Shown piece by piece: positions 4,786-54,038 of a stretch of 64,000 nt of DNA. Made by a program: the position numbers and the translations under genes. The notes below the pieces were generated by a model. It was not told the origin of the DNA. It made no database searches and worked only from the letters and a program-made list of their open reading frames with translations. This DNA comes from a virus. Taxonomy: Duplodnaviria > Heunggongvirae > Uroviricota > Caudoviricetes. Each line of letters opens with the position of its first letter. Position 1 is the first letter of the stretch. The DNA lies in IMG/VR virus record IMGVR_UViG_3300005688_000042. One strand, 5' to 3'.

Positions 4786-4796
4786 GTTAAATTCCT

Positions 4797-8198: not shown

Positions 8199-8411
8199 AT
8201 GCTGTATTGTGATCGTAACTGCGGTAAATCAATAGATGAAACCGAAAAGTGGATTGTGGAATTTGTTAAGAAACATGGAGCATGGCCAAGATGTGCATGT
8301 CAATGGGGTTGTGGACCATACGGTAGATGGCGCGAAACAAAAGACCCACAATGGTGGATTGATATGTTGGAACGGATTGAAGTAGTTGACAACAAGAAAA
8401 CAAAAGTGTAG
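8199..8411 (+). CDS. Cys-rich small protein (putative zinc binding)
   Basis: CDRNCGK...CACQWGCGPYG. Confidence 0.4.
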   Translation: MLYCDRNCGKSIDETEKWIVEFVKKHGAWPRCACQWGCGPYGRWRETKDPQWWIDMLERIEVVDNKKTKV

Positions 8412-8576
8412 AATGTACTAAATAGAATAAAATTGTTTAAGTCGAAGATGTAAAGGTTATCAAGCAAACAGCAGCACGTGGGTTCGAATCCCATCCGGGT
8501 ACTAGAAATAGAACTGGTAGGCAAGTGGTTAGCCAGCCGTCAAAACATCTTTCATTGTTTAACTTACTTGAACATG

Positions 8577-8584
8577 TATAAATA
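8577..8584 (+). promoter_or_regulatory. T4-type late promoter TATAAATA
   Basis: Exact TATAAATAG 25 nt upstream of an AGTCGA unit. Confidence 0.5.
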
Positions 8585-8693
8585 GAATAAAATTGTCAGT
8601 CGATTTGTAGAAGATTATCTTAAAAAAGACTGTGGGTTCGAATCCCACCTTGGGTATGGCACCAAAACTTTTACTAAAACTTATTGGCAAACA

Positions 8694-8701
8694 TATAAAT
8701 A
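8694..8701 (+). promoter_or_regulatory. T4-type late promoter TATAAATA
   Basis: Exact TATAAATAG. Confidence 0.5.
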
Positions 8702-8917
8702 GAATTTGTAGTCGATCTGCTAAGGATTATCTTTCAATTGGTGAATTGGGCCGCGTGCCCATAATTCCTTACGAATAACTTACTACAATAATTTTGAATT
8801 TATCAGTCGATAGATGATCATTATCTTCCCGCCAAAAATTTGGGAATTAGTTGGTTCGAATCCAACACTAGCGTCGGTTCGCATTTGATTGTTGATAACT
8901 TACTGGTAATGTATTAC

Positions 8918-9004
8918 GGACGGTTGGTGGAGTCAGGTTTATCACGTCACTCTTGAAAAGTGAAGCTCCGAAAGGGGCCGTGGGTTCGAATCCCACACTG
9001 TCCT
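8918..9004 (+). tRNA. tRNA-Ser (anticodon UGA), type II with long variable arm
   Basis: Acceptor GGACGGT/ACTGTCC, anticodon stem TCACT/AGTGA with loop cuUGAaa, long variable arm, T-arm GTGGG-TTCGAAT-CCCAC; followed by a T8 run. Confidence 0.6.
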
Positions 9005-9145
9005 CAGTTTTTTTTCACAGTCGATTAATCTGGTTTACCTTGGAGAAACGTTCGACTTAATCATCGGATCGCGAGTCTGGTTCAAACCCGGACAAAATAG
9101 CGAAAGCTATTCGAACCATTTTAGCAACTTATTGTGATTCAGAAA

Positions 9146-17088: not shown

Positions 17089-17162
17089 AGCGGTATAGCA
17101 TAATGGTAATGCATCTGACTTTGACTCAGACTATGGTGGTCCGATTCCATCTACCGCTGCCA
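17089..17162 (+). tRNA. tRNA-Gln (anticodon UUG), CCA encoded
   Basis: Acceptor AGCGGTA/TACCGCT, D-stem GCAT/ATGC, anticodon stem TCTGA/TCAGA with loop cuUUGac. Confidence 0.6.
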
Positions 17163-17880
17163 AATTATTAGATTTTTGAAATGATTTTTCTAAAATTTCT
17201 GGCATATATTTCTTCATCCATCTATTGATTTTCTGAGGTTTCTTACCAAGTAATGTGGCTAATTTTGTCACCCATCCATATTTTGTAAAATCAATATCAC
17301 AGTTTTTAATTATTTCCATATCATCTTTTATTTTTGTTGTTAGTTCTCCCGTCCTATAATTGTATATTTCTTTTCGGATTATTTCGGGTTTTATCTTTTT
17401 AGGTCTTTCTGGTTTTATCTTAACTGATCTCTTTTTGACATTTGCTCCGCAGAAGTTACTAGTCTGTGCGTGACAATTCCTACATAATAATCTTATATTT
17501 TCTAGTCGATGGTCTGTTGGATCTCCATTTATATGATCTAAATCCAATGGTATTGGTTTATCGTTCCATTCAGTTAATGAACATATAGAGCATTGATGAG
17601 AGAATATATTCTCTTTAATTAATCGCACTCTTAGTTTAGATGTTGTGTATGATGGATATTTCCCATCCAATATATCTTTTAGATTTATTTTAATGTTATT
17701 TTTCCCTATTTTATTATTTGTAAACTTATCTATATTTAAATCATATAACTTTATATAATAATTTAATGACTTATAAGAGTAATTGCTAGTAGTGTGTAAA
17801 CCTAGAAAATTAAAACACTCGGCTTTTGATGTACTGGCATTGATCGCCTCTTGTAAATCTTCTTTTGATATATAATTCAT
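17131..17880 (-). CDS. HNH homing endonuclease
   Basis: HNH motif DLDHINGDPTDHRLENIRLLCRNCH; late promoter and RBS upstream; last 32 nt overlap the tRNA-Gln 3' end on the opposite strand. Confidence 0.7.
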   Translation of the reverse strand: MNYISKEDLQEAINASTSKAECFNFLGLHTTSNYSYKSLNYYIKLYDLNIDKFTNNKIGKNNIKINLKDILDGKYPSYTTSKLRVRLIKENIFSHQCSICSLTEWNDKPIPLDLDHINGDPTDHRLENIRLLCRNCHAQTSNFCGANVKKRSVKIKPERPKKIKPEIIRKEIYNYRTGELTTKIKDDMEIIKNCDIDFTKYGWVTKLATLLGKKPQKINRWMKKYMPEILEKSFQKSNNLAAVDGIGPP

Positions 17881-18086: not shown

Positions 18087-18163
18087 GCGGGTGTGGTATA
18101 GTGGCTGTGCCCTGCGCTTCCAACGCAGAGTTTAGGTGGGTTCGATTCCCATCGCCCGCTCCA
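18087..18163 (+). tRNA. tRNA-Gly (anticodon UCC), CCA encoded
   Basis: Acceptor GCGGGTG/CGCCCGC, anticodon stem CTGCG/CGCAG with loop cuUCCaa, T-loop TTCGATT; followed by a T6 run. Confidence 0.7.
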
Positions 18164-18866
18164 ATTTTTTATATTTTCTCAAATCTAAATCTATCCCCAA
18201 CCGCTTACATCTTTTCTTAATTGCCGTGTCACTGACACCAAACTTCTCACCCAAAGACACCATTGAATGGTTTATGATCAATTCTGTCAATTCCTCTTTA
18301 GTGACGTTAAACTTTCTCATATTTTGAGTCCTGATGGCCTTTTTCTCTGCTGATTCATAGCTCTTCCGCTTGTCATTCTTCGGACGTTTGGAATTTCGAC
18401 CAGAAAATGTAGTAGTTTGGCTGTGACAGTTAGGACAAAGAAAACATAAATTTTCTAATCTATTGTCATCATTAATCCCATTAATGTGCTCTAATTGCAA
18501 GATTAATGGTTTGCCATTATGACTTCCATTATTATCACATTCAGAACATTTGTAAGCTAATAGATTATTTTCTGTTAGTATCTTTTTAATTGTTTTTCTA
18601 CTCGTCTTAGAACCAGTAACAAAAACATTGTGTATATTATGAGTACAATCTATGCGTGCTTTTCTATATTCTTTATAGTTTAATTTCATTTGTTCGGTAT
18701 TAATTGACTCCACACTGATCCTCCGTGTCAGTGTCCTATGGTTCCCGTTGTAACCATTAAATCCTAACTTCTCTAAAACTTCTACGATAGAACTACTTGT
18801 GTCTATCATGTTTTGTAAATCTTCTCTAGGTATTAACCATATTACTGACGTTCTTGGTTTTGGCAT
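18132..18866 (-). CDS. HNH homing endonuclease (start trimmed to MPKPRTS)
   Basis: LEHINGINDDNRLENLCFLCPNCH; late promoter plus AAGGAG RBS upstream of the ATG at 18866; C-terminus overlaps the tRNA-Gly 3' end. Confidence 0.65.
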   Translation of the reverse strand: MPKPRTSVIWLIPREDLQNMIDTSSSIVEVLEKLGFNGYNGNHRTLTRRISVESINTEQMKLNYKEYRKARIDCTHNIHNVFVTGSKTSRKTIKKILTENNLLAYKCSECDNNGSHNGKPLILQLEHINGINDDNRLENLCFLCPNCHSQTTTFSGRNSKRPKNDKRKSYESAEKKAIRTQNMRKFNVTKEELTELIINHSMVSLGEKFGVSDTAIKKRCKRLGIDLDLRKYKKLERAMGIEPT

Positions 18867-20177: not shown

Positions 20178-20810
20178 ATGAAATGTAAAAAATGTGAAGT
20201 AGATTTTATACCATCCAAGGGGTTAATAAATTATTGTTCTCTAGCATGTAGAAATACTAGGGTCTTTACTGATGAAGCCAAAATTAAAAAAGCAGACCAG
20301 AACAAGATATTTTGGAGAAATTTATCAGATTTGGAAAGGGTAGAGAGAATATCAAAAATACATACACCAACTAGAATTAAGAAAATAAAAGAAACTCTCG
20401 AAAAGAAAATTAATGAAAAACCATTTGACTCTGTATGTTTTGATGTAAAGCGGGTTAGGGTCATAAAAGAACAAGAAAATAAATGTAATTCTTGTGGTAT
20501 TTTTGAGTGGATGGGATCTCCAATCTCATTAGAGATTGACCATATTGACGGAAATAATAAGAATAATTCTAGAGATAATCTAGAGGGATTATGTCCTAAT
20601 TGTCATTCATTAACTCCGACATGGCGAGGAAGAAACACAAGAAAGGCGAAAATAAGTGATAACGAACTTATTAATAGCATAGTAAACGCTGGCAGTATAC
20701 GCCATGGTTTGTTAAATTTAAACATGTCACCAAAGGGTGACAATTATGGTAGAGCAAAAAGACTACTAGAAAATAGTGGATTAGAAATAACCAGAGGGAT
20801 AGATTCATGA
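20178..20810 (+). CDS. HNH homing endonuclease
   Basis: EIDHIDGNNKNNSRDNLEGLCPNCH; N-terminal Cys cluster. Confidence 0.7.
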   Translation: MKCKKCEVDFIPSKGLINYCSLACRNTRVFTDEAKIKKADQNKIFWRNLSDLERVERISKIHTPTRIKKIKETLEKKINEKPFDSVCFDVKRVRVIKEQENKCNSCGIFEWMGSPISLEIDHIDGNNKNNSRDNLEGLCPNCHSLTPTWRGRNTRKAKISDNELINSIVNAGSIRHGLLNLNMSPKGDNYGRAKRLLENSGLEITRGIDS

Positions 20811-21112
20811 ATTACAATATTAAAGACATAGTTAAAGATAATAAGAGAGTGAAGTTTTGTTACTATAAGCATGGTGAATTGTTTTATAAAACTGAATGTG
20901 GCTTCATGTTTCCAGTGCCTATTAGTGATACTGGTGACGGGACTTTCTTGGATGAAGATAAAGCTATATTGTTTATGAGATATATTCGTAAACAAATTCA
21001 AGCGATTAAAAATGATAATTCCGAATTTGAGTCTATTGGTGGGTTGCCGCCACTATCAGAAAAAGAAGGCGTTGACTTGCTGAAATCTGCTGGTATTATG
21101 AATCTTTATTGA
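20807..21112 (+). CDS. hypothetical protein
   Basis: ORF track. Confidence 0.45.
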   Translation: MNYNIKDIVKDNKRVKFCYYKHGELFYKTECGFMFPVPISDTGDGTFLDEDKAILFMRYIRKQIQAIKNDNSEFESIGGLPPLSEKEGVDLLKSAGIMNLY

Positions 21113-21189
21113 ATTAGAAGACATAACAGGATATTTTTGGTACACTTGTCTGCGTTTACTATAAATAGATTTGTAGAAGAGAAAAACAA

Positions 21190-21756
21190 ATGAGAATAAA
21201 AATATCTGAATATGCAAAAATGAAAGGTGTGAGCCAGCGCACAGTATGGCGCTGGATCAAAAATAACGAACTACAAATAGAACATACACAAACTGGCAGG
21301 GTTCGCATCTTACTTGATGTCAATAAAGAGACAAAAGTCGCTGTTTATGCCCGAGTTTCGAGTACAGAAAACAAAGATAATCTTGATAGACAAAAAGATC
21401 GAGTTGTGTCTTATTGCAATGCCAAAGGATACAAAATAGAGAAGATTGTCACAGAAATTGGTTCTGGTTTAAATGACAACAGACCAAAACTTGAGTCGCT
21501 TTTAATAGATAAAGACATTGACTTGATTGTTGTGGAACACAAAGATCGATTAGCCCGTTTCGGCACCAATTACATCGAGAAATTGCTGGCTGTTTCTGAC
21601 AGAAAGATTGAGGTCATCAATCCGGTTCAGGACGAAAAAGAAGATTTAATGCAAGATTTCGTGTCACTTGTCACATCTTTTACAGCCCGGTTGTATGGAT
21701 TGCGTAGGTCCAAGCGACAGACCGAAAAGCTGATCCAATCCTTGGAAGCTGCATGA
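21190..21756 (+). CDS. tnpA: IS607-type TnpA: MerR-like HTH + serine recombinase (resolvase) domain
   Basis: KMKGVSQRTVWRW HTH; catalytic VYARVSS...RQ. Confidence 0.7.
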   Translation: MRIKISEYAKMKGVSQRTVWRWIKNNELQIEHTQTGRVRILLDVNKETKVAVYARVSSTENKDNLDRQKDRVVSYCNAKGYKIEKIVTEIGSGLNDNRPKLESLLIDKDIDLIVVEHKDRLARFGTNYIEKLLAVSDRKIEVINPVQDEKEDLMQDFVSLVTSFTARLYGLRRSKRQTEKLIQSLEAA

Positions 21757-22982
21757 AAGCTAGACGTGTAGAAAAGCATGCCATATGTCGCACAAGTCAT
21801 TATTTTAGTGACTTGTGTGATCTGACTCACAAGTCCAAAAACTTGTATAATGCATCTTTGTATGCCATTCGTCAGCATTTTTTCTCCACAAAAACATACA
21901 TCGGCTATTCAAAATTAGCTGGTGATTTCGCAAAAACTAATATAGATTACCAGCAATTACCTAGAAAAGTGTCACAACAGACCTTAAAATTGGTTGATCA
22001 AAATTTTAGATCATTCTTTGCTTTGTTGAAAGCAAAGAAAAATGACAAGGTACGTATACCAAATTACCTAGACAAATCAGGTAAATATGTGACAATTTTC
22101 ACTAATCAGGCATTATCTTTCGTTAAACCTGGATATGTAAAATTATCTGGTTATGACATCTTTATAAAGACAGAAAAAACAGATATACAACAGGTTAGAG
22201 TTGTTCCGAGAAGCAATCATTTTGATATAGAAGTGATATATTTGACAGATATAGAAGACAAAAGAAGTGACAATAGTCGTTATTTGTCCGTTGATATCGG
22301 TTTAAGTAATTTAGTAGCAACAGCGTCAAATGTCATGAAACCATTTTTAATAAATGGAAAACCATTGAAAGCTATAAACCAATATTATAATAAAAGAAAA
22401 GCAGAACTACAATCAAAATTAGGAGACAAAAGAAAGACAAGTAATAGAATCAACGCCATTTCTAGAAAAAGAAATGACAAAATTCGTGATTATTTACATA
22501 AAGCAAGTACGTGGCTTATTAATCAATTAGATTTCAACCAAATAAACACCTTAATAATCGGTGAAAATAAAGGTTGGAAACAAGAGATAAACATCGGAAA
22601 GAAAAATAATCAAAATTTTGTGTCAGTGCCATTCAATAAATTGAAACAAATGTTGACATATAAAGCCGAATCAAGAGGAATTAATGTCATTTGTCAGGAA
22701 GAGAGCTATACATCAAAGGCATCATGTTTGAGTAATGATATGATTCCGACATATGGAGAGAAGACGGATGACATGAAATTTTCTGGATATAGAAAAACCA
22801 GAGGAATTTATAAAGACAAATGTCTTGATTTAGAAATAAATGCAGATGTCAATGGCGCATATAATATTATGAGAAAAGCAGTCGGAGATGTAAAAATTGA
22901 TCCGATAGAGGCATGTAGTTGGCCCTTGTCAGTGAAAATTTCACTTGACACAAAACCTAAGTTATGTCATTATTGGCATTGA
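21753..22982 (+). CDS. tnpB: TnpB (OrfB) RuvC-like protein; C-terminal zinc finger degenerate
   Basis: RuvC-I VDIGLSN, RuvC-II IIGENKGW, RuvC-III NADVNGAYNI; both CxxC pairs lost (CLSND, CLDLE). Confidence 0.65.
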   Translation: MKARRVEKHAICRTSHYFSDLCDLTHKSKNLYNASLYAIRQHFFSTKTYIGYSKLAGDFAKTNIDYQQLPRKVSQQTLKLVDQNFRSFFALLKAKKNDKVRIPNYLDKSGKYVTIFTNQALSFVKPGYVKLSGYDIFIKTEKTDIQQVRVVPRSNHFDIEVIYLTDIEDKRSDNSRYLSVDIGLSNLVATASNVMKPFLINGKPLKAINQYYNKRKAELQSKLGDKRKTSNRINAISRKRNDKIRDYLHKASTWLINQLDFNQINTLIIGENKGWKQEINIGKKNNQNFVSVPFNKLKQMLTYKAESRGINVICQEESYTSKASCLSNDMIPTYGEKTDDMKFSGYRKTRGIYKDKCLDLEINADVNGAYNIMRKAVGDVKIDPIEACSWPLSVKISLDTKPKLCHYWH

Positions 22983-23042
22983 TTTATGGAACTATAATGA
23001 TGGTACTCCAATTACATGTGAATATAAAGTAGAGGAAAGAAA

Positions 23043-29957: not shown

Positions 29958-30004
29958 TTTATTTTATCACATGATATAAATATACAAAATATCATGGATA
30001 ATTT

Positions 30005-31792
30005 ATGTCAACTGTTCTATTAACCGCTGGAAGGACTAAAACACTAACATCGTCAATCATTGTTGGCGAGAACGAAGTGTTACAATTAACCATTTTCAGT
30101 CCTACTGTGAACATTCCGAAGGATATTCCTCTTTTTAGAGTTAAAAGAAAAAATGTTCTCGATATTTACGAATCATTTTACTTAAATGGTGTCGTAGCTA
30201 TGAGTGGTAGTGCATACTCATTAACAATATCATATCCGGGTGAATATAAAATACTTCGCCCAGATATTACTGCTTTTGACATTGATATAGGAATTGAATA
30301 CGATAAATTTTCAGCAGGCGATGCTGGCGCAGTAGGCTGGGATGATATAACAGACAAGCCCGCTACCTTCCCAGCAACAGCGGGTGGCGCAGACACACAG
30401 ATTCAGTTCAACAACGCTGGCGCACTTGCCGGCGACTCAGGGTTTACTTACAACACGACTAACAAGACTGTAGCGCTAGGCGGCGGTGTCCTTACTGCTA
30501 GTAACCCTGTTCTTAATCTTGCGCAGACTTGGAATAACGCTGCGGTTACGTTTGAGGGCATCAAACTCAACGTGACGAATACCGCTAGCGATGTGCTGAG
30601 CAGGTTCGCTACATTTAGTGTGGATGGATCAGATTTTGTCCGCATACTGAGGCGCGGGGCTATCGTATTTCCTACGTCACCCGGAGTGCAAGATCCCGGT
30701 GTTGCTGGCATCGGCAACTACGGAGGTACGCTCACTATGTGGAGCGGCTCCGGGACGCGCATGATCAGTATATCTACTACGGATATAAATGTAGTAAGCG
30801 CTAGTGCGTCTCTATCTTTCAGCACGGGCACAGCTCTTTTCAGGGATGCCGCTGGGATACTTGCGCAACGTAGTGGTGTTACCACCCAAACTTCCCGCAT
30901 TTACAATACCTATACCGATGCCAGCAACTACGAGCGTTTGGCACTCATTCCCGGCGCCACATCCGGTTGGATGCAGATCGCTGCGCAGAGTGCGGGTACT
31001 GGCACCGCTAACATCAACGTCGCACTGACTCCTGCGGGTACAGGCGCTTTGTCTGCGCAGGTTCCGGATAGCACCACGGCGGGTGGTAATGCGCGCGGGA
31101 CGAATGCAGTTGATTGGCAGACAAGCACTCGCACTCTCGCTACGCAGGTCGCTTCCGGCGCATGGGCGACATGCGCAGGGGGATTCAGAAACACTGCCTC
31201 AGGTTCAACTTCTGTCGTCGCTGGCGGTAATACAAACATAGCAGGAGGACAAACTTCTGCTGTTGGTGGTGGGTATGCAAACTTGGCATCTGGTCCGCTG
31301 TCGTGGATTCCCGGAGGATCGACGGCCACTACGCGCCTGCTATATGGCGCAGGCGCGTATAGTGCTGGTCAGCGTGCGGCATTAGGCGACGCGCAGGTTA
31401 TAGTACAGCCAGTCCGCATTACGACCAGCGCAGCATCCGCAACAACGCTCACGGCGGACGGTGGCGCCGAATCCGCCACGAATGTGATGGTGTTGCCAAT
31501 TAACTCTGGCGCAGATTTCGAAGCGCGGGTTGTTGCGGTGCATGCGTCTGGCGCCGCTGCTGGATCGTGGAAGATCGAAGGTACTGCACGCCGGGGAGCT
31601 AGCGGCAATGCAATAATCGTTGGCACTAACACGGTTACTACCAAGGGTTTAGATGCTGCTTTAGGCACACCAACGATCAATGTAGTACCGGCAACGGGTG
31701 CGGGTGCGGGTGCAATCGTAATCCAAGTAACTCCTGCCAACGCAACGACAACTTATTGGGTTGGTCGAGTCGAACTGATTCAAGCAGCATAA
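30005..31792 (+). CDS. tail-fibre / receptor-binding-like protein, Gly/Ala/Thr-rich, GC-rich
   Basis: ITDKPATFPATAGG resembles the tail-fibre KPxTFPP repeat; composition differs strongly from the flanks. Confidence 0.55.
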   Translation: MSTVLLTAGRTKTLTSSIIVGENEVLQLTIFSPTVNIPKDIPLFRVKRKNVLDIYESFYLNGVVAMSGSAYSLTISYPGEYKILRPDITAFDIDIGIEYDKFSAGDAGAVGWDDITDKPATFPATAGGADTQIQFNNAGALAGDSGFTYNTTNKTVALGGGVLTASNPVLNLAQTWNNAAVTFEGIKLNVTNTASDVLSRFATFSVDGSDFVRILRRGAIVFPTSPGVQDPGVAGIGNYGGTLTMWSGSGTRMISISTTDINVVSASASLSFSTGTALFRDAAGILAQRSGVTTQTSRIYNTYTDASNYERLALIPGATSGWMQIAAQSAGTGTANINVALTPAGTGALSAQVPDSTTAGGNARGTNAVDWQTSTRTLATQVASGAWATCAGGFRNTASGSTSVVAGGNTNIAGGQTSAVGGGYANLASGPLSWIPGGSTATTRLLYGAGAYSAGQRAALGDAQVIVQPVRITTSAASATTLTADGGAESATNVMVLPINSGADFEARVVAVHASGAAAGSWKIEGTARRGASGNAIIVGTNTVTTKGLDAALGTPTINVVPATGAGAGAIVIQVTPANATTTYWVGRVELIQAA

Positions 31793-31823
31793 ATATCAAT
31801 TAGACTAATAGGGATATACACAC

Positions 31824-32183
31824 ATGAAAATTACTACGGATGAGTTTGAAGTCGAAGGTTCTTTTGTCGCAAGGCAGACTTATAAAGAACCAACGTCTAC
31901 CAACTCTCACACTTTTGGCCCAAGTGATGTAAACAAGTGCGTAAGGTTTACGGATGCTGGAGCGAACAGCGCTATATTTCCTGACACTTTAACCGCTGGA
32001 ATGGGCGGCTTGATTATGCGAGCCGTTGGAGCTGGGGTCATCACTTGGTCAGTGACGGGATCAATGGTCATAACCCCTGATGCTGCGTCTACTGGACACA
32101 CAGGAAGTGCTGCTGACCCATCATTCCTATGGTGGGAATGTGATGGAACAAACTCCGTGATCATTGGAGGAAGTACAGCGTGA
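31824..32183 (+). CDS. hypothetical protein in the GC-rich fibre module
   Basis: ORF track; GGGATA RBS. Confidence 0.45.
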   Translation: MKITTDEFEVEGSFVARQTYKEPTSTNSHTFGPSDVNKCVRFTDAGANSAIFPDTLTAGMGGLIMRAVGAGVITWSVTGSMVITPDAASTGHTGSAADPSFLWWECDGTNSVIIGGSTA

Positions 32184-32932
32184 TTAAACGCGGCGGCAGG
32201 TTCTTACAACGGTCTAATGGTAGCTTGGACCTATCATCTAATTTAGTTCTTTCACTTGATCTTGAAGAGGTTAGTGGGGACGCTATTGATCAAAGTATTA
32301 GTGAGTATGATTTCATTGATGTGAATACAGTGGAATCCGCCGCCGGAGCAACGCCCGGATACGGGTCACGCTTGTTTACACCAGATAACTCGGAGCATCT
32401 CTATCTGCCAAGTTCAGGAACATCAAATGTAAATATTTTAGATAATGAATGGGCCATGCACTTTTGGGCCAAGCGAAACGCAACTGGCGCCCGCATCATT
32501 TTTGCCAAATCACCGAGTACTGTGGTCGCTACTGCTACCGCAAGAGCATTCATTATTTACTTTTCTTTGTCGACTTTGATCTTTACTGTTGGGAGATCTG
32601 TCGCTGCTGATGGCGCTGTATCGGTTTCTGCTAATGTACCGATGAGTGAATGGATTCCTGTGTTATGTTGGCACGATCCAAATGCAGATGTAATTGGAGT
32701 GAAAATCGGCACGGATGCGGCTGTGACAACCACTTTAGTTGGAGGCGCACGAGCCGGTAGCTCATCTGACGTCAGGATCGGATCGACATCCGTAACCCCC
32801 GGCTCTTATCTTGACGCAAATCTTGCAGCTTTGCGAATCTGGCGAGGCGCTGGTGTCATCAATCAAATAGTCAATCCTGAAGTAATCAATTTTCTAAACG
32901 CAAGACAACGAAGACACACGGAGTTAGTATGA
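32180..32932 (+). CDS. hypothetical protein, possibly lectin/LamG-like jelly-roll (fibre-associated)
   Basis: ORF track; GC-rich; fold assignment is a guess. Confidence 0.35.
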   Translation: MIKRGGRFLQRSNGSLDLSSNLVLSLDLEEVSGDAIDQSISEYDFIDVNTVESAAGATPGYGSRLFTPDNSEHLYLPSSGTSNVNILDNEWAMHFWAKRNATGARIIFAKSPSTVVATATARAFIIYFSLSTLIFTVGRSVAADGAVSVSANVPMSEWIPVLCWHDPNADVIGVKIGTDAAVTTTLVGGARAGSSSDVRIGSTSVTPGSYLDANLAALRIWRGAGVINQIVNPEVINFLNARQRRHTELV

Positions 32933-33435
32933 AAATAGTAAACACAATAACTGGCGGTAGAACTACGCTGCAACAATTACTTCGAACGTTTCCACGTATC
33001 GGATCAGTAGCAAATCCCGCGCAAGGCATCCGCACAGTCTGGGATAATCCCCCAACCGATGAGCAGTTAGCGGCGGTAGGCTATCAATATGTTTTGGAAG
33101 TAGACCCTCCAGAATTTGGACCTGATGAACAATTGAGCAATGGACCAGATGCCCTAATAAATGGCAGATGGACCCAGACATGGGTTGTCGAAGAACTTGC
33201 CGTGCCAGAGGAAGTGGACACTATAGCATTCAAATTGACATTACATGATCTCAATCTACTTCCCTCTGTGCAGGGTTATGTAGATACGCTTTCTCCGGTG
33301 GAACAAATCTATTGGCAACACAGATCAACGATACGTCGCGATTCTGATTTTATTGAGTCGGGAAGAATCGCCCTTGGATTAACTCAGGAACAAGTTGATG
33401 ACTTGTTTCATGCCGCTAAAGCCAGAGCAGTGTGA
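32929..33435 (+). CDS. hypothetical protein (fibre module)
   Basis: ORF track. Confidence 0.45.
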   Translation: MKIVNTITGGRTTLQQLLRTFPRIGSVANPAQGIRTVWDNPPTDEQLAAVGYQYVLEVDPPEFGPDEQLSNGPDALINGRWTQTWVVEELAVPEEVDTIAFKLTLHDLNLLPSVQGYVDTLSPVEQIYWQHRSTIRRDSDFIESGRIALGLTQEQVDDLFHAAKARAV

Positions 33436-33495
33436 TATGATTAGGTTGGTCGCCTTGAATTGATAAATACCTTTATAAACTAAATAGGAATAAAA

Positions 33496-33888
33496 ATGAC
33501 AATTACGGTTACTTTAACAAATAACAGACACATAGCTGGCGCAAATGCGGCTTATATGATGACAATCCCTGAAGATGGAGATTCACCGTACCAATCTGTA
33601 CAGGAATATGTACAAAATGCAATCGAACGTGTAGCTGAATCATGGGCTGACTCAGCGAAGGTTGATCAAATTTCAGTATTTGAGTTTGTTGAACGTATTG
33701 GCGCGGAGCGATTCGCCGCGATAACAGCAGCGGCACCGAACGACCCTATCATCGCAGAAATGTTGGTCACGCTTCGCGCCCGACAGACCGTGAGATTAGG
33801 ATCGCCAGATGCAATCAATGGTATTGCATACCTCGTCAGTGTTGGTCTATTGACACAGCAACAAGCTGACACCGCGTTGGCGTATTGA
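33496..33888 (+). CDS. hypothetical protein (fibre module)
   Basis: ORF track; AGGAATAAAA RBS. Confidence 0.45.
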   Translation: MTITVTLTNNRHIAGANAAYMMTIPEDGDSPYQSVQEYVQNAIERVAESWADSAKVDQISVFEFVERIGAERFAAITAAAPNDPIIAEMLVTLRARQTVRLGSPDAINGIAYLVSVGLLTQQQADTALAY

Positions 33889-33948
33889 TCATCATTGACA
33901 TCTAACCTCAATTCCCTTATGATAGCTTAAACATAGGGGATGAAGGAC

Positions 33949-34110
33949 ATGAAATTATTTTGGGTGTTGGGGTGGGATCAATATTATCCAAATATTGACA
34001 ATTTTTTAGCCTCATTCGATAATGAAGCTGATGCGCAAGAATATATCTCTCAACAAAATAAGTATTACGATTTTTACAAAATCGTGAATATCTCGGATAG
34101 GCTATAAGAT
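33949..34110 (+). CDS. small hypothetical protein (53 aa)
   Basis: Hand translation MKLFWVLGWDQYYPNIDNF... Confidence 0.3.
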
Positions 34111-35313: not shown

Positions 35314-35570
35314 TGGAAGAAATAACTGAAGGCACTTTTGTAGATTTTGTTCGCAAGTATTGGTCACAAGATTTAACCTATGAGGAATGTGATACAATTT
35401 TATGGAATCTAACCTCATACCCATTTTCACCTTTAGAAAAAATCAAAGAAGAGTTGATATTGCAACACGCCGAAAGTGGTGGTAATATTGGTGTTGCAAT
35501 GAACAATTATGACAACTTAATGCGTAGAGAAATTAAACGATTAAAGGAACAAGAAATCAAAAATTGTTAG
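35313..35570 (+). CDS. hypothetical protein
   Basis: ORF track. Confidence 0.4.
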   Translation: MEEITEGTFVDFVRKYWSQDLTYEECDTILWNLTSYPFSPLEKIKEELILQHAESGGNIGVAMNNYDNLMRREIKRLKEQEIKNC

Positions 35571-35615
35571 CGCGTATTTTTAAAATCCGTATAAATAGAT
35601 GTAAAGGATTGAAAA

Positions 35616-35774
35616 ATGATGATAAAATTAGTAGATTTCGCAAAGACGCAAGGTGTATGTTACAGAACAGCTTACAATTGGTTCCACCTTGGCTACATCG
35701 AAGGTGCATACCAAACGGCATCACGCACTATATTGGTGCCGAAAGACGCCAAAGTTAAGAGAAAAAGCGAATAA
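35616..35774 (+). CDS. truncated IS607 TnpA: MerR-like HTH only (52 aa)
   Basis: Hand translation MMIKLVDFAKTQGVCYRTAYNWFHLGYIEG... parallels the TnpA N-termini of copies 1 and 3; no resolvase domain; AAAGGA RBS. Confidence 0.45.
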   Translation: MMIKLVDFAKTQGVCYRTAYNWFHLGYIEGAYQTASRTILVPKDAKVKRKSE

Positions 35775-35781
35775 AATCGCC

Positions 35782-36891
35782 GTGAATCTTGCCCACAAAA
35801 TTCAGTTAAAACCCAACAAAGAACAGAAGCAGATGCTGGCGCGAGCCGCAGGCTGCGCCAGATTCACTTACAATTGGGCTTTGGCCGAATGGAATAAGCA
35901 ATATATGGCAGGCGAGAAACCGTCAGCATTAAAATTGAAAAAGCAATTCAATTCCATTAAAAAGCAGGAATTTCCATGGATATACGATTCACCAAAAGAT
36001 GCAAATCAACAACCATTTACAAATTTACAAAGTGCTTTCAAAGGTTTCTTCGACAAACGAACCGCGTATCCGCAGTTTAAGAAAAAGTACAAACGCGATT
36101 CATTTTATGTCTCAAACGATCAATTTCACATAACTGATAATATGATTAAACTTCCACTAATTGGAAAAATTAAATTGGAAGAGACATTGAGATTTGAAGG
36201 TAAGATCATGTCTGCTGTGGTCAGTCGAAAAGCTGATAAATGGTTTATATCAATTGCGGTAGAGATGAATGATTATGGTAAAGCTAGAACATCAGATAAC
36301 ACCATAGCAATTGATTTTGGCATCAAAACTTTCGCGGTTGATCAAAATGGCGCATCTTTCGATGCACCAAAACCATTGAAAAACAAGCTTCAAAAGCTGA
36401 AAAGGTATCAGAGAATTTGTTCAAAGAGAAAAGATGGAAGTCAAAACAAAAAGAAACAAAGATGTAAAGTAGCAAAAATACATAAAGAAATCAGTGACTT
36501 ACGTCACGATTTCACACACAAATTTACAACTCAAATCTGTCGCGAAAACCAAACGATAATTATAGAAGATTTGAATTTGAAAAGCTGGAGCAAAATGTTT
36601 GGGAAGTCAGGAATTGATGGTGGCGTGGGCGAAGCCCGACGCCAACTCAAATACAAGTCATTGATTTATAACAACAATTTAGTTGTAATAGATAAATGGG
36701 CACCGACTTCCAAATCATGTTCTAGTTGTGGTAGCTATAAATCAGACTTGAAATTGAGTGATCGAATCTTCTGCTGTACGGATTGTGGTCATAAAATGGA
36801 CAGAGATTGGAATGCTGCCAAAAATATTTATGTCTCAGGAATGAGACAACTAGGGATGGCTTGTCCCGAAGTTACGCCTTTGGACATCTGA
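35782..36891 (+). CDS. tnpB: TnpB (OrfB), apparently intact; probable GTG start
   Basis: RuvC-I IDFGIKT, RuvC-II IIIEDLN, zinc finger CSSCGS...CTDCGH, RuvC-III DRDWNAAKNI; no in-frame ATG after the HTH ORF stop. Confidence 0.6.
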   Translation: MNLAHKIQLKPNKEQKQMLARAAGCARFTYNWALAEWNKQYMAGEKPSALKLKKQFNSIKKQEFPWIYDSPKDANQQPFTNLQSAFKGFFDKRTAYPQFKKKYKRDSFYVSNDQFHITDNMIKLPLIGKIKLEETLRFEGKIMSAVVSRKADKWFISIAVEMNDYGKARTSDNTIAIDFGIKTFAVDQNGASFDAPKPLKNKLQKLKRYQRICSKRKDGSQNKKKQRCKVAKIHKEISDLRHDFTHKFTTQICRENQTIIIEDLNLKSWSKMFGKSGIDGGVGEARRQLKYKSLIYNNNLVVIDKWAPTSKSCSSCGSYKSDLKLSDRIFCCTDCGHKMDRDWNAAKNIYVSGMRQLGMACPEVTPLDI

Positions 36892-37004
36892 CCAATTTGC
36901 ACAGAAAATCGTGTGAAAGTTGGATGGTTGAATTAGGAACTGGAATGATGTACATTATGTACATGTTTTAGGAAGCAGATAATGGTGATGGTAGTCATTC
37001 TTAT

Positions 37005-38008: not shown

Positions 38009-38405
38009 CATAGCAAACTTGACATATAACTGCAATTTCAAGATTGATTACACAAACTATAAGGGCGAACGTTCAGTAAGAACTATTCGCCCAATTTGCA
38101 TATGGTTTGGATCAACGGAATATCACAAAGAGCCACAATTTCTTTTAAACGCTCTAGACGTTGATAAAAATGAAGAGAGGGATTTCGCGATGAAGGATAT
38201 CCACGATCTAGAGCTTGATAACCAAGACGGTTATTACAATCCGCTATCGTTACAAGAAGATTACATTTTTCCATATCCTTCCAATAGTGGGGCGACAGTT
38301 GAAGGTGATAATGTAATTATACTAGACAGAGAAGAATTGCTCAAACAGTTGACAAGGACTCTGCTACCAGATACTATAGAGCCATCAAATGAGAAACAAG
38401 AATAA
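38001..38405 (+). CDS. hypothetical protein
   Basis: ORF track. Confidence 0.45.
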   Translation: MYNIANLTYNCNFKIDYTNYKGERSVRTIRPICIWFGSTEYHKEPQFLLNALDVDKNEERDFAMKDIHDLELDNQDGYYNPLSLQEDYIFPYPSNSGATVEGDNVIILDREELLKQLTRTLLPDTIEPSNEKQE

Positions 38406-52094: not shown

Positions 52095-52156
52095 TTCCGA
52101 AAATTAGCACAAATAATATCATCTGCTATAAATAGATATATGAAAGGTGATATTAC

Positions 52157-52735
52157 ATGAAACTTCGACAATGGGCAAATAAACAAGGGATTTCCTACTT
52201 GACAGCGCTTCGCTGGTTCAAGGCAGGTAAAATTCCAAATTCAACTCAATTCCCATCTGGCACCATCATAATACAAGATGAGCTGCCTGTCAACACGGAT
52301 GAAAATAAATCAGTACATATCTATGCCAGAGTTTCTTCACATGAGAAGAAAGATGATCTAACCAGACAAGCCCAAAGATGTGTTGAATTTGCTAATGCCA
52401 ATGGATACGAAATAATCTCAGTTACAAAAGAAATTGCTTCTGGCATGAATGATAAGCGACCAAAATTAATTAAATTGATTGAACAGAAACCAAAACATAT
52501 CATTGTTGAGCACAAGGACAGATTGACCAGATTTGGATTCAATTACTTTGATTTATTACTTCCTATGATTGGTTGTAAATTAACTGTTATGAATAGAGAT
52601 CAAGAAGAGCATGCGGATTTAATGAAAGATTTAGTTTCTGTTATTACATCATTTTGTTGTAAATTATATGGTCTGCGCAGAGCGCAGAACAAGAAACAAA
52701 AGATCCAACAAATATTGGAAGACGAAAATGTTTAA
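52157..52735 (+). CDS. tnpA: IS607-type TnpA serine recombinase with MerR-like HTH
   Basis: NKQGISYLTALRWF HTH; IYARVSS...RQ. Confidence 0.7.
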   Translation: MKLRQWANKQGISYLTALRWFKAGKIPNSTQFPSGTIIIQDELPVNTDENKSVHIYARVSSHEKKDDLTRQAQRCVEFANANGYEIISVTKEIASGMNDKRPKLIKLIEQKPKHIIVEHKDRLTRFGFNYFDLLLPMIGCKLTVMNRDQEEHADLMKDLVSVITSFCCKLYGLRRAQNKKQKIQQILEDENV

Positions 52736-53783
52736 AAGAGCTATTAAGTTGAAATCATATGCAACAGAAGCAAAGCAAAATAAAGTCCTTGCTTTGATTA
52801 GTCGCTATAGATGTCAAGTTAATATGTTTATAGATTACATCTGGAACAACAAAGAAACAGCAAAATTAGATGCTAAAACATTGAAATCTATAGATAAAGT
52901 TCAAGATTTATCCGAAAGATATAAATCCAATGCATTGAAACAGGCACTTCAAATTTGTAAAAGCGAAAAGAACAAATCCAAACCAGATTTCAATGGTTAT
53001 CCGGTGCTAGATGCAAAGTTCGTGTCTATTGACACGAACAAATCTTCAAAAGAATTTGATTTGTGGATAAAATTATCAACATTGAAATCTGGAAGACGAA
53101 TAGAAATACCAACAAAGAAGCATGCACATTTAAACAAATGGCTTAAAACTGGTACATTGATACAAGGCTGTGAGCTTCGCCCAGACGGTTTCATCGTCTG
53201 GGTAGAGGCGAACCCACCTGAAAAGAAAAATAGCTTGAAGGTCGGTGTAGACATCGGAATGAACAAGCTATTGACCACTAGCTATGGTGAAAAATTAGGA
53301 ACTGATTTTAATCGAATCAATGATAAAATTCTAAGGAAGAAAAAGAACAGTAAGAATTACAAAAGAGCCATAGCAGAAAAGAAAAACTATATAAATCAAT
53401 CAGTTAACTTGCTTCCGTGGACAGAAATGGAAGTGCTTTGCTATGAAAACATTAAAAATTTGAAGAAAGGAAGTACAAAAAGAAATAAACAAACAAGACA
53501 AAAACAGCAACATTGGAGCTATAGACAAGTTATAGAAGCTATGAAAATGAAGGCCCAAGCTAACCGTGTTAGCTTGGTCTATGTTAATCCGGCTTACACT
53601 TCTCAGAAATGTTCCGCTTGTGGTAATATTGCTGCATCCAGTCGATATCTAGAAAATTATTGTTGCATCAGTTGCGGTCATACACAAGACGCAGATGTAA
53701 ATGCAGCAAAAAATATTCTACACAAAGGACTAGACTGGATAACGAGCTTAGAGTCCGTTAAGTCAAAAAGTGCTATCATATGA
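52728..53783 (+). CDS. tnpB: TnpB (OrfB), intact RuvC motifs and zinc finger (start trimmed to MFKRAIKL, ATGTTTAA overlap)
   Basis: VDIGMNK, YENIKNL, YTSQKCSACG...CISCGH, DADVNAAKNI. Confidence 0.7.
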   Translation: MFKRAIKLKSYATEAKQNKVLALISRYRCQVNMFIDYIWNNKETAKLDAKTLKSIDKVQDLSERYKSNALKQALQICKSEKNKSKPDFNGYPVLDAKFVSIDTNKSSKEFDLWIKLSTLKSGRRIEIPTKKHAHLNKWLKTGTLIQGCELRPDGFIVWVEANPPEKKNSLKVGVDIGMNKLLTTSYGEKLGTDFNRINDKILRKKKNSKNYKRAIAEKKNYINQSVNLLPWTEMEVLCYENIKNLKKGSTKRNKQTRQKQQHWSYRQVIEAMKMKAQANRVSLVYVNPAYTSQKCSACGNIAASSRYLENYCCISCGHTQDADVNAAKNILHKGLDWITSLESVKSKSAII

Positions 53784-53831
53784 TAGCTAAATCACTAACT
53801 CTGCTACGAGTGTTAAATCTGTAATATAACA

Positions 53832-53864
53832 GAACCCCACCTGAGACGTGGGGTTTCTTTTTTG
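53832..53864 (+). terminator. rho-independent terminator
   Basis: CCCCAC-ctgaga-CGTGGGG followed by TTTCTTTTTTG. Confidence 0.65.
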
Positions 53865-54038
53865 TCTTTCCTACCATCCCCGACCTCCATCCCATTTTAC
53901 CACATATAATATAACTCTGTCTTGTTGTTTTTTCGCAACATTCATAAACCGTTCATGAAGAAAGAAAACGGTTTTGTTCATTTACCGTTCATCGTACTGT
54001 GCTATGATTCATCCATACAAACCAACTGGAGAAAAGAA

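Follow-up and report, generated by a model that had tools for sequence, protein, structure and literature searches.

The analysed stretch of DNA (the window) covers 64 kb of a phage genome of ~307 kb. The phage is regarded as T4-like because rIIA, rIIB and RnlA lie in the window and gp32, UvsX, a terminase and a weak UvsY-like PHROG match (E = 1.2e-05) lie near a relative of one of the elements described here. Homologs of gp55, gp33 and gp45 were not found in the 64-kb window or in the examined stretches of related contigs, including, in the gp55/gp33 search, the contig carrying that relative (L098). The window contains three elements of IS607 type, designated c1, c2 and c3, with their proteins numbered accordingly; in each, a co-oriented tnpB directly follows tnpA or, in c2, a stub of it. 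As the preliminary description stated, the 11-mer TATAAATAGAT stands at 21160, 35590 and 52127, preceding the three elements' first genes; a search for exact matches returned it nowhere else in the 64 kb (n = 3). Its first eight bases, TATAAATA, are referred to below as the box.

21092..23003, plus strand: element c1, complete IS607-family element, ~1.91 kb, with GG at the left end (21092-21093) and GG at the right end (23002-23003)
21160..21167 (11-mer to 21170), plus strand: c1 box TATAAATA, 67 nt in from the left end, with the tnpA ATG 22 nt downstream
21190..21756, plus strand: c1 tnpA, serine recombinase with N-terminal HTH, 188 aa (Pfam Resolvase)
21753..22982, plus strand: c1 tnpB, 409 aa (Pfam OrfB_IS605 and Cas12f1-like_TNB)
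22850..23003, plus strand: c1 right end with putative ωRNA scaffold (start approximate), partly within the 3′ end of tnpB
35565..36978, plus strand: element c2, IS607-derived with HTH-only tnpA, ~1.41 kb; right end exact at 36978 (closing with TTTTAGGAAGCAG), left end approximate (35560-35575)
35590..35597, plus strand: c2 box TATAAATA, 18 nt before the stub ATG
35616..35774, plus strand: c2 stub, HTH-only, 52 aa, a homologue of the DNA-binding domain at the TnpA N terminus
35782..36891, plus strand: c2 tnpB, ISDra2-like, 369 aa from GTG 35782 (start uncertain; Pfam HTH_OrfB_IS605, OrfB_IS605 and TNB)
36815..36978, plus strand: c2 putative ωRNA scaffold; putative guide in the flank at 36979-36998 (ATAATGGTGATGGTAGTCAT)
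52109..53802, plus strand: element c3, complete and of the IS607 family, 1.69 kb, with GC on either side (52107-52108 and 53803-53804)
52127..52134, plus strand: c3 box TATAAATA, 18 nt in from the left end, with the tnpA ATG 22 nt downstream
52157..52735, plus strand: c3 tnpA, serine recombinase with N-terminal HTH, 192 aa (Pfam Resolvase)
52728..53783, plus strand: c3 tnpB, compact and Cas12f-like, 351 aa (Pfam Cas12f1-like_TNB; C-terminal matches to Cas12f/TnpB in PDB)
53832..53866, plus strand: intrinsic terminator (9-bp stem with 5 GC pairs, T-run) in flanking phage DNA, 30 nt beyond the right end of c3

TnpA1 and TnpA3 score 183.5 and 174.8 bits, respectively, against the NCBIfam transpos_IS607 equivalog (cutoff 110) and match the solved IS607-family catalytic domains 6DGC and 6DGB (E = 1e-28; YARVSS serine motif), with weak Pfam HTH matches at residues 3-40. 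A small serine recombinase with an N-terminal HTH is thus found in c1 and c3 only. Because c2 encodes only the HTH domain and has no TnpA catalytic domain, it is classed as an IS607-derived, non-autonomous element and not as a full family member; the earlier reading of all three as IS607-like TnpA/TnpB elements holds for TnpA1, TnpA3 and the three TnpBs, and has to be qualified for c2. The tnpB start overlaps the tnpA stop in c1 (ATGA, 21753-21756), tnpB begins at 52728 before the tnpA end at 52735 in c3, and 7 nt lie between the stub stop and the tnpB GTG in c2. The TNB domain is above the Pfam cutoff in all three TnpBs. Against NCBIfam guided_TnpB (cutoff 100), TnpB1 scores 167 bits, TnpB2 is above the cutoff and TnpB3, with 86 bits, falls just under it. 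A RuvC-like D-E-D triad accompanies the TNB domain in each: in TnpB2, which matches ISDra2 TnpB in PDB with E = 6e-47, the segments aiDfgik, iiiEdln and mdrDwnaakni align as D, E and D with the top PDB match 9yyg, a designed TnpB-like nuclease, and in TnpB1 (svDiGl, iGEnk, naDvNgayNi) and TnpB3 (vDiGm, cyEni, daDvNaakNi) the triad comes from motifs only, read by eye.

TnpA1 and TnpA3 share 43% amino acid identity and the TnpBs are nearly unalignable. On these comparisons c1, c2 and c3 are three distinct IS607-family lineages and not, as first described, three copies of one IS. Comparison with TnpB in other T4-like phages, which had been proposed as a check, recovered, for each family, relatives whose TnpB is 67-95% identical; they lie in contigs of other T4-like phages, at unrelated positions, and some run antiparallel to the genes beside them. 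Each comparison of the window with a relative shows different flanking genes, and the presence of each family at different sites in different phages indicates that the elements have moved. The c1 relative in L091 (TnpB 79% identical) has unrelated flanks and neighbours on the opposite strand, and the c3 relative in L098, a T4-like contig (TnpB 95% identical), is antiparallel to gp32, UvsX and terminase.

IS607-family elements have a matching core dinucleotide, typically GG, lack terminal inverted repeats and move through a circular double-stranded intermediate formed by TnpA. The element boundaries were mapped here with one to three relatives per family. For c1, identity with L091 rises from ~0.3 to 0.73 at about 21086-21093 and collapses past 23003, with 49/67 positions identical from 21093 to the box and 18/60 further left. 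An initial candidate left end at 21139-21140 (between TTTTTGG and TACA) was dropped, as the alignment places it at 21092-21093; the element therefore spans about 21092-23003 and not 21160-22982 as first given. GG is absent between box and ATG but present at both mapped ends. The left flanks end in CTGCTGG in the window and in CCCCACG in L091, and the core dinucleotides are GG/GG and CG/GG, respectively. L091 has the same box as c1 (TATAAATAGTT), with only 2/9 of the nucleotides directly upstream matching. Element c2 was compared in four contexts (the window, L093/L094, L095 and L097), which diverge directly past GCAG; an alternative right end at GATGG was discarded, the alignment placing it at 36978. 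The 30 nt upstream of its box are alike in 6/6 pairs (z = 2.1-5.7) and sequence farther upstream in one pair only, and the box is unchanged in 4/4 contexts, followed by GAT in three and by AAT in L095. Homology of c3 with L098 runs from ACAAATAATATC (52109) to CTAACTCT (53802), and the right boundary is common to L101. Left flanks end in ATTAGC in the window and in AATAATA in L098, with core dinucleotides GC/GC and TA/AT; L098 has the same 11-mer as c3, and L106 has TATAAATACAT. The two left flanks available for each of c1 and c3 are too few copies for a TAM motif. No inverted repeats were apparent on reading the element ends by eye.

Homology with relatives at unrelated sites thus begins upstream of the box, by 18 nt in c3, about 20-30 nt in c2 and 67 nt in c1, beyond which identity is at background. 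This alignment places the box inside each element rather than in flanking DNA, an outcome that excludes promoter targeting and speaks for a promoter carried by the element itself. Contrary to the earlier proposal, the motif does not form the very start of the elements. Boundaries downstream of the box had been named in advance as the outcome that would count against an element-borne box; the boundaries instead lie upstream of it in all three families, so that of the two explanations originally offered the suggested target preference for late-promoter sequence is not supported. The other, a family of elements adapted to phage late transcription, gains support from a box that sits within sequence common to relatives at unrelated sites and is conserved amid drift. 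In addition, the elements in L091 and L098 are antiparallel to all their neighbours, and the box can therefore not be a neighbour's promoter.

The box also behaves as a signal in the rest of the window. TATAAATA occurs 17 times against 9 expected, and on the plus strand 13/13 occurrences lie outside ORFs, where composition predicts 4.6 inside and 2.5 outside. An ORF starts 10-33 nt downstream in 10/13 of these plus-strand sites, and seven of those ten ORFs are selfish nuclease genes (3 IS607 and 4 HNH endonucleases). These counts identify TATAAATA as an intergenic, gene-proximal signal in this genome. Across the three families the 8-mer is identical in 9/9 element copies that retain a left end; within families the pairwise identity is 80/80 in the 8-mer versus 118/200 (59%) in the 20 nt upstream and 90/140 (64%) in the 14 nt downstream, and the spacing from box to ATG is 14-22 nt (22, 18 and 22 nt in c1, c2 and c3). 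Judged from these alignments, the box is constrained much more strongly than the DNA around it. The three bases that follow it vary among relatives (GAT, GTT, AAT, CAT), and TATAAATAGAT with one mismatch gives 6 matches versus 4.8 expected, an ordinary frequency for the loose pattern. The 11-mer first described as the promoter motif is invariant only in TATAAATA, and its identity among the three window elements is in part coincidence. In position, the octamer agrees with a T4-type late promoter (at about -10, just upstream of a gene) in 9/9 copies, and we infer promoter function and late timing from this motif identity with T4. Distant relatives of TnpB1 and TnpA1 in IMG/VR (36-69% identity, in other phage types, too diverged for boundary mapping) do not have the box, which is therefore not a general IS607 feature.

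The right ends are conserved in a manner that suggests an ωRNA, with conservation stopping at the boundary in all three elements. In c1 the identity with L091 is 80-93% up to the GG, followed by unrelated sequence, and the consensus fold has conserved hairpins; the putative guide would be the flank from 23004 (TACTCCAATTACATG onward). In c2, positions 36850-36978 are 93-97% invariant over the four contexts, above most of the coding region, and conservation then falls to 37%; its right-end fold has z = -2.5 and a consensus structure with 3 compensatory pairs. The consensus folds have only 3 such pairs per family, from 2-4 sequences, and Rfam at gathering and permissive thresholds returned no family at the right ends. 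The terminator at 53832..53866 lies outside c3, since the L098 flank differs; it would end a read-through transcript just past the putative c3 guide.

A loss of the recombinase is seen more than once. The c2 stub aligns with residues 1-45 of TnpA1 and TnpA3 and is kept as a 51-52 aa ORF in L093, L097 and L095, with pN/pS of 0.05-0.09 at pS of 0.54-0.80. Because it is conserved in four contexts at these values, the stub is a gene under purifying selection and not debris; the earlier account of c2, a TnpA cut down to 52 aa beside an intact TnpB, was correct in anatomy and missed this selection. A stub-TnpB fusion by frameshift was rejected, the upstream extension of the tnpB frame being unconserved (called lengths of 369, 372, 381 and 412 aa). 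An HTH profile gave no significant PDB match, and a single-sequence AlphaFold model of the stub, one long helix with pLDDT 70, was uninformative. In the c3 family a 76-aa HTH-only form has arisen separately from the c2 stub, and L106, a 67% relative in that family, is HTH-only like c2. The tnpA in L098 is truncated and 82% identical to that of c3, versus 93% for tnpB. L101 and L104 contain a solo tnpB, and L104 is decayed, with its left end and also its right-end terminus lost.

Searches for unoccupied alleles and further copies added little. Exact look-ups of four flanking proteins returned only contigs 99.9-100% identical to the window, all with elements; the reconstructed c1 empty-site string was absent from IMG/VR; and the protein upstream of c3 gave no exact match and no relative in IMG/VR. 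Since every contig with the window's flanks carries elements, no empty-site allele was found. Left-end probes of c1 and c3 in IMG/VR recovered only the contig already known, and a megablast of the c1 region against GenBank phages gave no match. Bacterial genomes had been suggested as a place to look for the same element; for the c2 family, bacterial and archaeal reference genomes held no close relative. TnpB2 had no close relative in genome_contigs, and neither genome_contigs nor metagenome_contigs matched DNA probes built from the c2 ωRNA core and its right-end terminus; these being exact-word searches, absence is weak evidence. Contig breaks at 22904 and 35661, considered as population variants, were traced to Nextera adapter sequence and N-gaps.

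We consider it probable that each of the three elements bears a T4-type late promoter in its own left end and that they are late-timed, RNA-guided elements of homing type. Late-timed homing between co-infecting phages is the likely mechanism. Late in infection, a gp55-type phage RNA polymerase would start at the box and produce a single transcript that runs through tnpA (or the stub that replaces it) and tnpB into the right-end ωRNA. TnpB would trim the 3′ end to give the ωRNA, with the phage DNA just past the right end as its guide; such processing of ωRNA by TnpB from its own mRNA has been described (PMC10278001). The TnpB-ωRNA complex would then cut the empty site, either in a mixed infection with an insertion-free relative or after TnpA-mediated excision, the donor joint being a reported substrate of IS607 TnpB-ωRNA (bioRxiv 10.1101/2023.11.20.567912; PMC10711439), and the break would be repaired from the occupied allele by the T4-type recombination machinery (UvsX, UvsY, gp32). 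In this way the elements would do with an RNA guide what T4 homing endonuclease genes do, at a time when many replicated genomes are present. In c1 and c3, the serine recombinase could also carry the element to new sites, and in c2 and, independently, a c3 relative the catalytic domain has been lost and the HTH domain kept under selection. DNA modification is frequent in T4-like phages and could block TnpB.

The box could instead be ordinary phage DNA, possibly part of a TAM or target site, with IS607 elements inserting by preference just downstream of late promoters. The motif is indeed a real promoter-like signal of the phage, TnpA and TnpB of characterised IS607 elements have a short target motif in common directly beside the left end (PMC10711439; bioRxiv 10.1101/2023.11.20.567912), and no empty site was recovered among the contigs and IMG/VR searched. 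However, this explanation is already contradicted by the homology upstream of the box in all three families, by the antiparallel L091 and L098 elements, which leave no resident gene to own the promoter, and by c1, whose GG dinucleotides are at its mapped ends and not between box and ATG; we hold it to be highly improbable. Scarcely more credit is due to a chance AT-rich octamer, with transcription read through from phage genes upstream or started at sigma-70-like promoters. A genome of 37% GC, the ordinary frequency of the loose 11-mer and a count that is not significant in the AT-rich Campylobacter phage CP21 would all fit chance, and read-through is possible for the window elements, all three being co-oriented with upstream genes. 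It is not possible for the antiparallel copies in L091 and L098, and chance does not account for an octamer kept in nine of nine copies from three families amid drifting flanks, for its constrained spacing to the ATG, or for a motif kept out of ORFs and concentrated just upstream of genes; in L104, which is decayed, the left end has gone together with the right-end terminus.

An explanation that we judge unlikely, though it deserves more weight, is domestication, in which late TnpB-ωRNA (with the HTH protein) would serve mainly as a weapon against competitors or in another phage function and not in propagation of the element. The repeated decay of tnpA with retention of tnpB (truncated in L098, absent in L101 and L104, HTH-only in c2 and L106) is consistent with this, as are the elements' GC content, equal to that of the host, their apparent fixation in all near-identical contigs of the phage and the lack of a close c2 relative in the bacterial genomes searched; marker exclusion by T4 homing endonucleases likewise favours the carrier phage (PMC13565253; PMC2988022). 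On the other hand, c1 and c3 keep a full-length TnpA under purifying selection (pN/pS of 0.056 for c1 tnpA versus L091), each family has moved between sites, and a guide taken from the element's own flank targets the empty allele only, which is the configuration of selfish homing. Competitor exclusion and homing can also coexist.

Among known systems, c1 and c3 resemble IS607, IS1535, ISXfa1 and the C. botulinum IStron in their small serine-recombinase TnpA, with N-terminal HTH and C-terminal catalytic domain. As in IS607-family elements with TnpB, a co-oriented tnpB overlaps tnpA, c1 in the window shows GG at both junctions, and conservation of the right end stops at the boundary, which would fit an ωRNA scaffold whose guide comes from the flank. 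They differ in residing in lytic T4-like phages and not in bacteria, in a left end with a putative T4-type late promoter in place of a promoter of host type, in core dinucleotides, which may be other than GG (GC in c3), in the reduction of TnpA to its HTH domain as a selected 52-aa gene in c2, and in having no group I intron. I-TevI, I-TevII, I-TevIII and the seg/mob genes of T4 are selfish nuclease genes whose mobile unit includes a late (or middle) promoter of their own, just ahead of the ORF; the parallel with them is one of function, without homology. T4 homing endonuclease genes spread by double-strand-break repair in co-infection; the intron-encoded ones have late promoters of their own just upstream of the ORF, and I-TevI represses itself at an operator overlapping that promoter (PMC2988022). 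HNH endonuclease genes of the window stand behind the same TATAAATA box. In contrast to the T4 endonucleases, target recognition by the present elements would be RNA-guided (TnpB-ωRNA) and not protein-based, and what moves is a DNA transposon that encodes a recombinase, not an intron or free-standing gene.

TnpB-encoding IS are known from T4-like Campylobacter phages: ISCaje1-4 of CP220 and CPt10 are often tnpB-only and occupy different sites in related phages (PMC2853527). Unlike c1-c3, they belong to IS200/IS605 (Y1 transposase) and no promoter adaptation has been described for them. A further example is the IS607-family element of CP21, whose tnpA has TATAAATA 39 nt upstream and whose tnpB is preceded by three tandem copies; its TnpA is only 28% identical, and the octamer in the AT-rich CP21 genome is statistically indistinct from chance.

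For the retained HTH, the most likely role, put forward here as speculation, is that of a DNA-binding protein that regulates the promoter or the ends of its own element, by parallel with I-TevI autorepression and with Arc in the IS605 family. Arc is a compact DNA-binding protein, encoded within the transposon upstream of tnpB, that binds the element's own promoter and represses it (bioRxiv 10.64898/2026.09.24.754181). It offers a plausible functional model for the HTH-only proteins of c2 and L106, although Arc is a ribbon-helix-helix protein unrelated to TnpA and the c2 stub is the TnpA HTH domain itself. It is also conceivable, though less likely than not, that IS607 elements in T4-like phages have become RNA-guided homing cassettes of late promoter, HTH protein, TnpB and ωRNA, in which the recombinase is dispensable and repeatedly lost, the HTH protein acts as autoregulator at a late-promoter operator or as end protector, and cutting of co-infecting genomes serves both spread and exclusion of competitor alleles. 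The recurrence of an HTH-only TnpA remnant under purifying selection suggests that IS607-derived elements have an accessory function not yet described.

Cas12 descends from TnpB, whose role as a homing nuclease in transposon retention has been established in bacteria. Homing that carries a transposon into the genome of a co-infecting phage, termed 'non-restorative transposon homing', is so far a theoretical category (PMC13565253), for which the present elements provide a concrete natural system for testing: three TnpB lineages are linked to a putative phage late promoter, relatives of their hosts encode T4 recombination machinery, and boundaries and candidate guides are defined. If confirmed, they would exemplify convergent regulation of protein-guided and RNA-guided selfish nucleases in T4-like phages and the ability of a transposon to take on a virus-specific promoter. 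The three TnpBs are compact (351-409 aa) and their right ends sharply bounded, which makes them candidate scaffolds for genome editing.

The exact 11-mer TATAAATAGAT occurs at three sites in the window (21160, 35590 and 52127, all on the plus strand), with an ORF pair downstream of each. Up to one mismatch, the window holds 6 matches vs 4.8 expected, so that only the exact copies stand out. The ORFs of the three elements, c1, c2 and c3, are as follows.

ORF pairs downstream of the exact copies of TATAAATAGAT
21190-21756, plus strand: c1 tnpA
21753-22982, plus strand: c1 tnpB
35616-35774, plus strand: c2 52-aa ORF
35782-36891, plus strand: c2 tnpB
52157-52735, plus strand: c3 tnpA
52728-53783, plus strand: c3 tnpB

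Pfam finds a Resolvase domain in both long TnpAs (TnpA1 and TnpA3) and OrfB_IS605 and/or Cas12f1-like_TNB in all three TnpBs. The NCBIfam model "IS607 family transposase" scores 183.5 bits for TnpA1 and 174.8 bits for TnpA3 (equivalog cutoff 110), and the IS607-family structures 6DGC and 6DGB match the TnpA1 catalytic domain at E = 1e-28. TnpB1 and TnpB2 exceed the NCBIfam cutoff for RNA-guided TnpB, with TnpB3 slightly under it (86 vs 100). The D, E and D motifs of TnpB2 line up with those of its top PDB match, 9yyg, a designed TnpB-like nuclease; ISDra2 TnpB matches TnpB2 at E = 6e-47, and TnpB1 and TnpB3 keep the corresponding motifs as judged by inspection. The domain, equivalog and structure matches therefore bear out the element anatomy given in the preliminary description, and the TnpA and TnpB proteins are intact. 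On the defining features tested, c1 and c3 classify as IS607 elements; c2, which lacks the recombinase, is best described as a non-autonomous, IS607-derived element.

The three had been taken for copies of one element, a view that does not hold, as they represent three diverged lineages: TnpA1 and TnpA3 are 43% identical, the TnpBs can be aligned in short patches only (best E-values 0.028, 0.06 and 4e-10), and at the DNA level nothing is common to c1, c2 and c3 except weak coding similarity and the octamer TATAAATA, the box within the 11-mer. The same 11-mer in elements so diverged calls for explanation, and a target preference for late-promoter sequence had been one suggestion. Empty sites were not found in GenBank phages, in contigs with the window's flanking proteins or in IMG/VR (searched with the c1 junction string), and boundaries were mapped instead by closer relatives at other sites, drawn from a large protein collection and the corresponding contigs, with few relatives per family.

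The c1 relative L091, whose TnpB is 79% identical to TnpB1, has a ClpP-side gene block on one flank and an NAD-ligase-side block on the other, and every neighbour is on the opposite strand. Identity between the two rises from ~0.3 to 0.73 at ~21086-21093 (49 of 67 positions from 21093 to the box vs 18 of the 60 to the left of that) and collapses past 23003, which places the c1 box 67 nt inside the left end. The junctions, marked by a slash, are CTGCTGG/TATTATG... and ...TAATGATGG/TACTCC in the window, and CACG/TATTTTA... and ...TATATGG/ACATAT in L091. GG at both element ends is the IS607 expectation (PMC10711439) and is seen for c1 in the window; a core dinucleotide is clear for c1 only. The four c2 contexts compared (the window; L093/L094, with RNA ligase and NAMPT on the two sides; L095; L097) are homologous through ...ATGTACATGTTTTAGGAAGCAG (window 36978) and unrelated directly beyond. 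At the left side, every one of the six pairs is similar over the 30 nt immediately upstream of the box (z = 2.1-5.7), and only L093 and L095 match farther out, so that the common left end starts at window 35560-35575, ~20-30 nt ahead of the box. The c3 relative L098 (TnpB 95% identical to TnpB3), which shares a 61-kb contig with L093 and runs antiparallel to the neighbouring gp32, UvsX and terminase genes, matches c3 from ACAAATAATATCATCTG (18 nt upstream of the box, at window 52109) as far as ...CTAACTCT (53802); a further relative, L101, has the same right boundary. The alignments thus place the box inside the element in all three families, and since the boundaries lie upstream and not downstream of it, the target-preference reading is removed. 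They also place each family at different sites in different T4-like phages. Break points inside elements in two public assembly contigs were rejected as assembly artefacts: L073 (ENA) has Nextera adapter sequence at both ends, and L068 (JGI scaffold) has N-gaps with adapter sequence at 305-600. The c2 right flank ATAATGGTGATGGTAGTC (36979-36996) resembles the c1 right terminus and flank ATAATGATGGTACTC (22994-23008); the resemblance may be accidental, or c2 may lie beside what is left of a c1-type end.

Nine copies retain a left end (c1, c2 and c3 in the window, and L091, L093, L097, L095, L098 and L106), and their within-family pairwise comparison indicates strong conservation of the box, with identity at 80 of 80 octamer positions, 118 of 200 in the 20 nt upstream and 90 of 140 in the 14 nt downstream; the distance from box to ATG is 14-22 nt. 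The 3 nt after the octamer are GAT in six of the nine, GTT in L091, AAT in L095 and CAT in L106. This makes TATAAATA the functional unit, and the identity of the 11-mer within the window phage is partly coincidence or local preference. Distant IS607 relatives from other kinds of phage are without the box. In the T4-like Campylobacter phage CP21 (L102), TATAAATA lies 39 nt upstream of an IS607 tnpA, and three tandem copies with 10-nt spacing occur between tnpA and tnpB fragments (3103-3130), all statistically non-significant in this AT-rich genome.

The octamer, which equals the T4 late-promoter consensus (see PMC2988022), occurs 17 times in the window vs 9 expected, a count reached in none of 100 shuffles. 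All 13 plus-strand occurrences lie outside plus-strand ORFs (composition predicts 4.6 inside and 2.5 outside), and ten boxes, seven on the plus and three on the minus strand, have an ORF start 10-33 nt downstream; this pattern points firmly to use of TATAAATA as a gene-proximal signal in the window genome. Selfish nuclease genes stand behind seven of these ten, namely the first genes of the three IS607 elements and four HNH endonucleases.

HNH endonuclease ORFs behind boxes
20178-20810, plus strand: box at 20144
17131-17880, minus strand: box at 17914 (minus); Pfam HNH match weak (E = 2e-4)
18132-18866, minus strand: box at 18893 (minus); Pfam HNH match weak (E = 7e-3), PHROG HNH E = 2e-36
63736 onward, plus strand: box at 63695

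The predicted late promoters are mostly tied to mobile genes in an otherwise early-type region. Gp55, gp33 and gp45 were not found within the window or the examined parts of related contigs, and late-sigma dependence of the boxes is therefore what we infer. Separately, ~5 repeated units of 100-150 nt cluster at 8400-9130, each with AACTTAyT, a late-promoter-like box (TACTAAATAGAAT at 8415; TATAAATAGAAT at 8577 and 8694), yAGTCGAT, GATTATCTT and a tRNA T-arm-like GTGGGTTCGAATCCCA. Only one is called as a tRNA (tRNA-Ser, 8918-9005). The units could represent tRNA-like genes, degenerate or unconventional, or else a family of small RNAs under promoters of their own.

The preliminary description had TnpA of c2 reduced to a stub. 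The HTH-only anatomy stands, as the 52-aa ORF can be aligned to the HTH domain at the N-terminus of TnpA1 and TnpA3, but debris it is not: it is an ORF of 51-52 aa in all four c2 contexts, and its pN/pS of 0.05-0.09 (at pS 0.54-0.80) is comparable to the 0.056 of full-length TnpA1 vs L091 and marks a selected gene and not a decaying remnant. In L106, of the c3 family (TnpB 67%), the box is followed by a 76-aa HTH-only ORF (3787-4017), the catalytic domain having been deleted independently. The L098 tnpA (4549-4998) is truncated to 149 aa, with DNA identity of 82% vs 93% for tnpB; L101 is tnpB-only, with a C-terminal tnpA remnant (4832-5011), and L104 (4001-5165) is a solo tnpB from which both the box and the terminal ~40 nt of the right end are gone. 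Across relatives the trend is loss of the recombinase and retention of promoter, HTH and TnpB, and ~60% of the 104 stub homologs in the library are shorter than 110 aa.

The right ends, where a TnpB guide RNA (ωRNA) would lie, have sharp boundaries in the alignments. Positions 36850-36978 of c2 are 93-97% invariant over the four contexts, above most coding sequence, vs 37% beyond the boundary, and fold with z = -2.5 into a consensus structure with three compensatory pairs. In c1 and c3, conservation of the right end runs to 21 and 19 nt beyond the tnpB stop, respectively, and the consensus folds are consistent; covariation support is weak because each family has 2-4 sequences only. No Rfam family matches these putative ωRNAs, and a strong intrinsic terminator lies 30 nt beyond the c3 right end, within phage DNA. 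The flanks are the candidate guides.

Candidate guides
from 23004: c1
from 36979: c2
from 53803: c3

In the mechanism that we propose, late transcription would start at the box and cover the first gene (tnpA or the HTH gene), tnpB and the ωRNA. The transcript would be processed by the TnpB that it encodes (PMC10278001), which would go on to cleave the empty allele or, following excision, the donor joint, cleavage of a kind shown for TnpB in bacterial IS607 and IS605 (bioRxiv 10.1101/2023.11.20.567912). The break would be repaired through the T4-type recombination system; gp32, UvsX and a weak UvsY-like match lie beside L098. Functionally, the T4 intron-encoded endonucleases come closest as a precedent: they have their own late promoter directly upstream of the ORF, and I-TevI autorepresses at an operator that overlaps it (PMC2988022). 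More speculatively, both this precedent and Arc in IS605 (bioRxiv 10.64898/2026.09.24.754181) suggest control of the element's promoter or ends as a possible role of the HTH-only proteins.

Phages are already known to carry IS607 and TnpB elements: 57 GenBank phage records have TnpA homologs, at no more than 48% identity, and T4-like Campylobacter phages have ISCaje elements (PMC2853527). For T4 mobile elements, internal late promoters are likewise known, in introns. A full-text literature search returned no paper tying IS607 to phage late promoters and none on TnpB homing in T4-like phages; transposon homing into co-infecting phages appears as a theoretical mode in a 2026 review (PMC13565253). 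Probes for the c2 ωRNA core and right-end terminus had no match in bacterial genomes or metagenomes, and no close relative of TnpB2 turned up in the genomes; the searches matched exact words, so that absence there is weak evidence.

The phage carrying the elements is an uncultured T4-like jumbo phage, almost clonal in public assemblies, where its contigs are 99.9-100% identical. Among the window's genes are rIIA, rIIB, an RnlA-type RNA ligase, several HNH endonucleases and ~10 tRNAs; no rIIA of a GenBank phage is more than 33% identical to the one in the window, GenBank phages give no match at the DNA level, and contigs with the same proteins reach ~307 kb. A GC-rich island at 30000-34000 (44-54% vs 37% overall), which may be a recent acquisition, opens with a box-driven 595-aa ORF (30005-31792) without a Pfam or PHROG match. 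The tRNA at 58353-58425, with anticodon CTA ("Pyl" by ARAGORN, 56 bits as a tRNA in Rfam), is possibly a phage-encoded amber suppressor. Secondary BLAST matches of contigs against the window reveal a direct repeat of ~165 nt (38394-38557 and 40655-40818, 85.6% identity). Two neighbouring minus-strand ORFs at 44606-45813 (206 and 196 aa), which may be a tandem duplication, weakly match (E = 2e-7 and 1e-8) the PHROG family of the T7 gp0.7-type protein kinase and host-transcription inhibitor.
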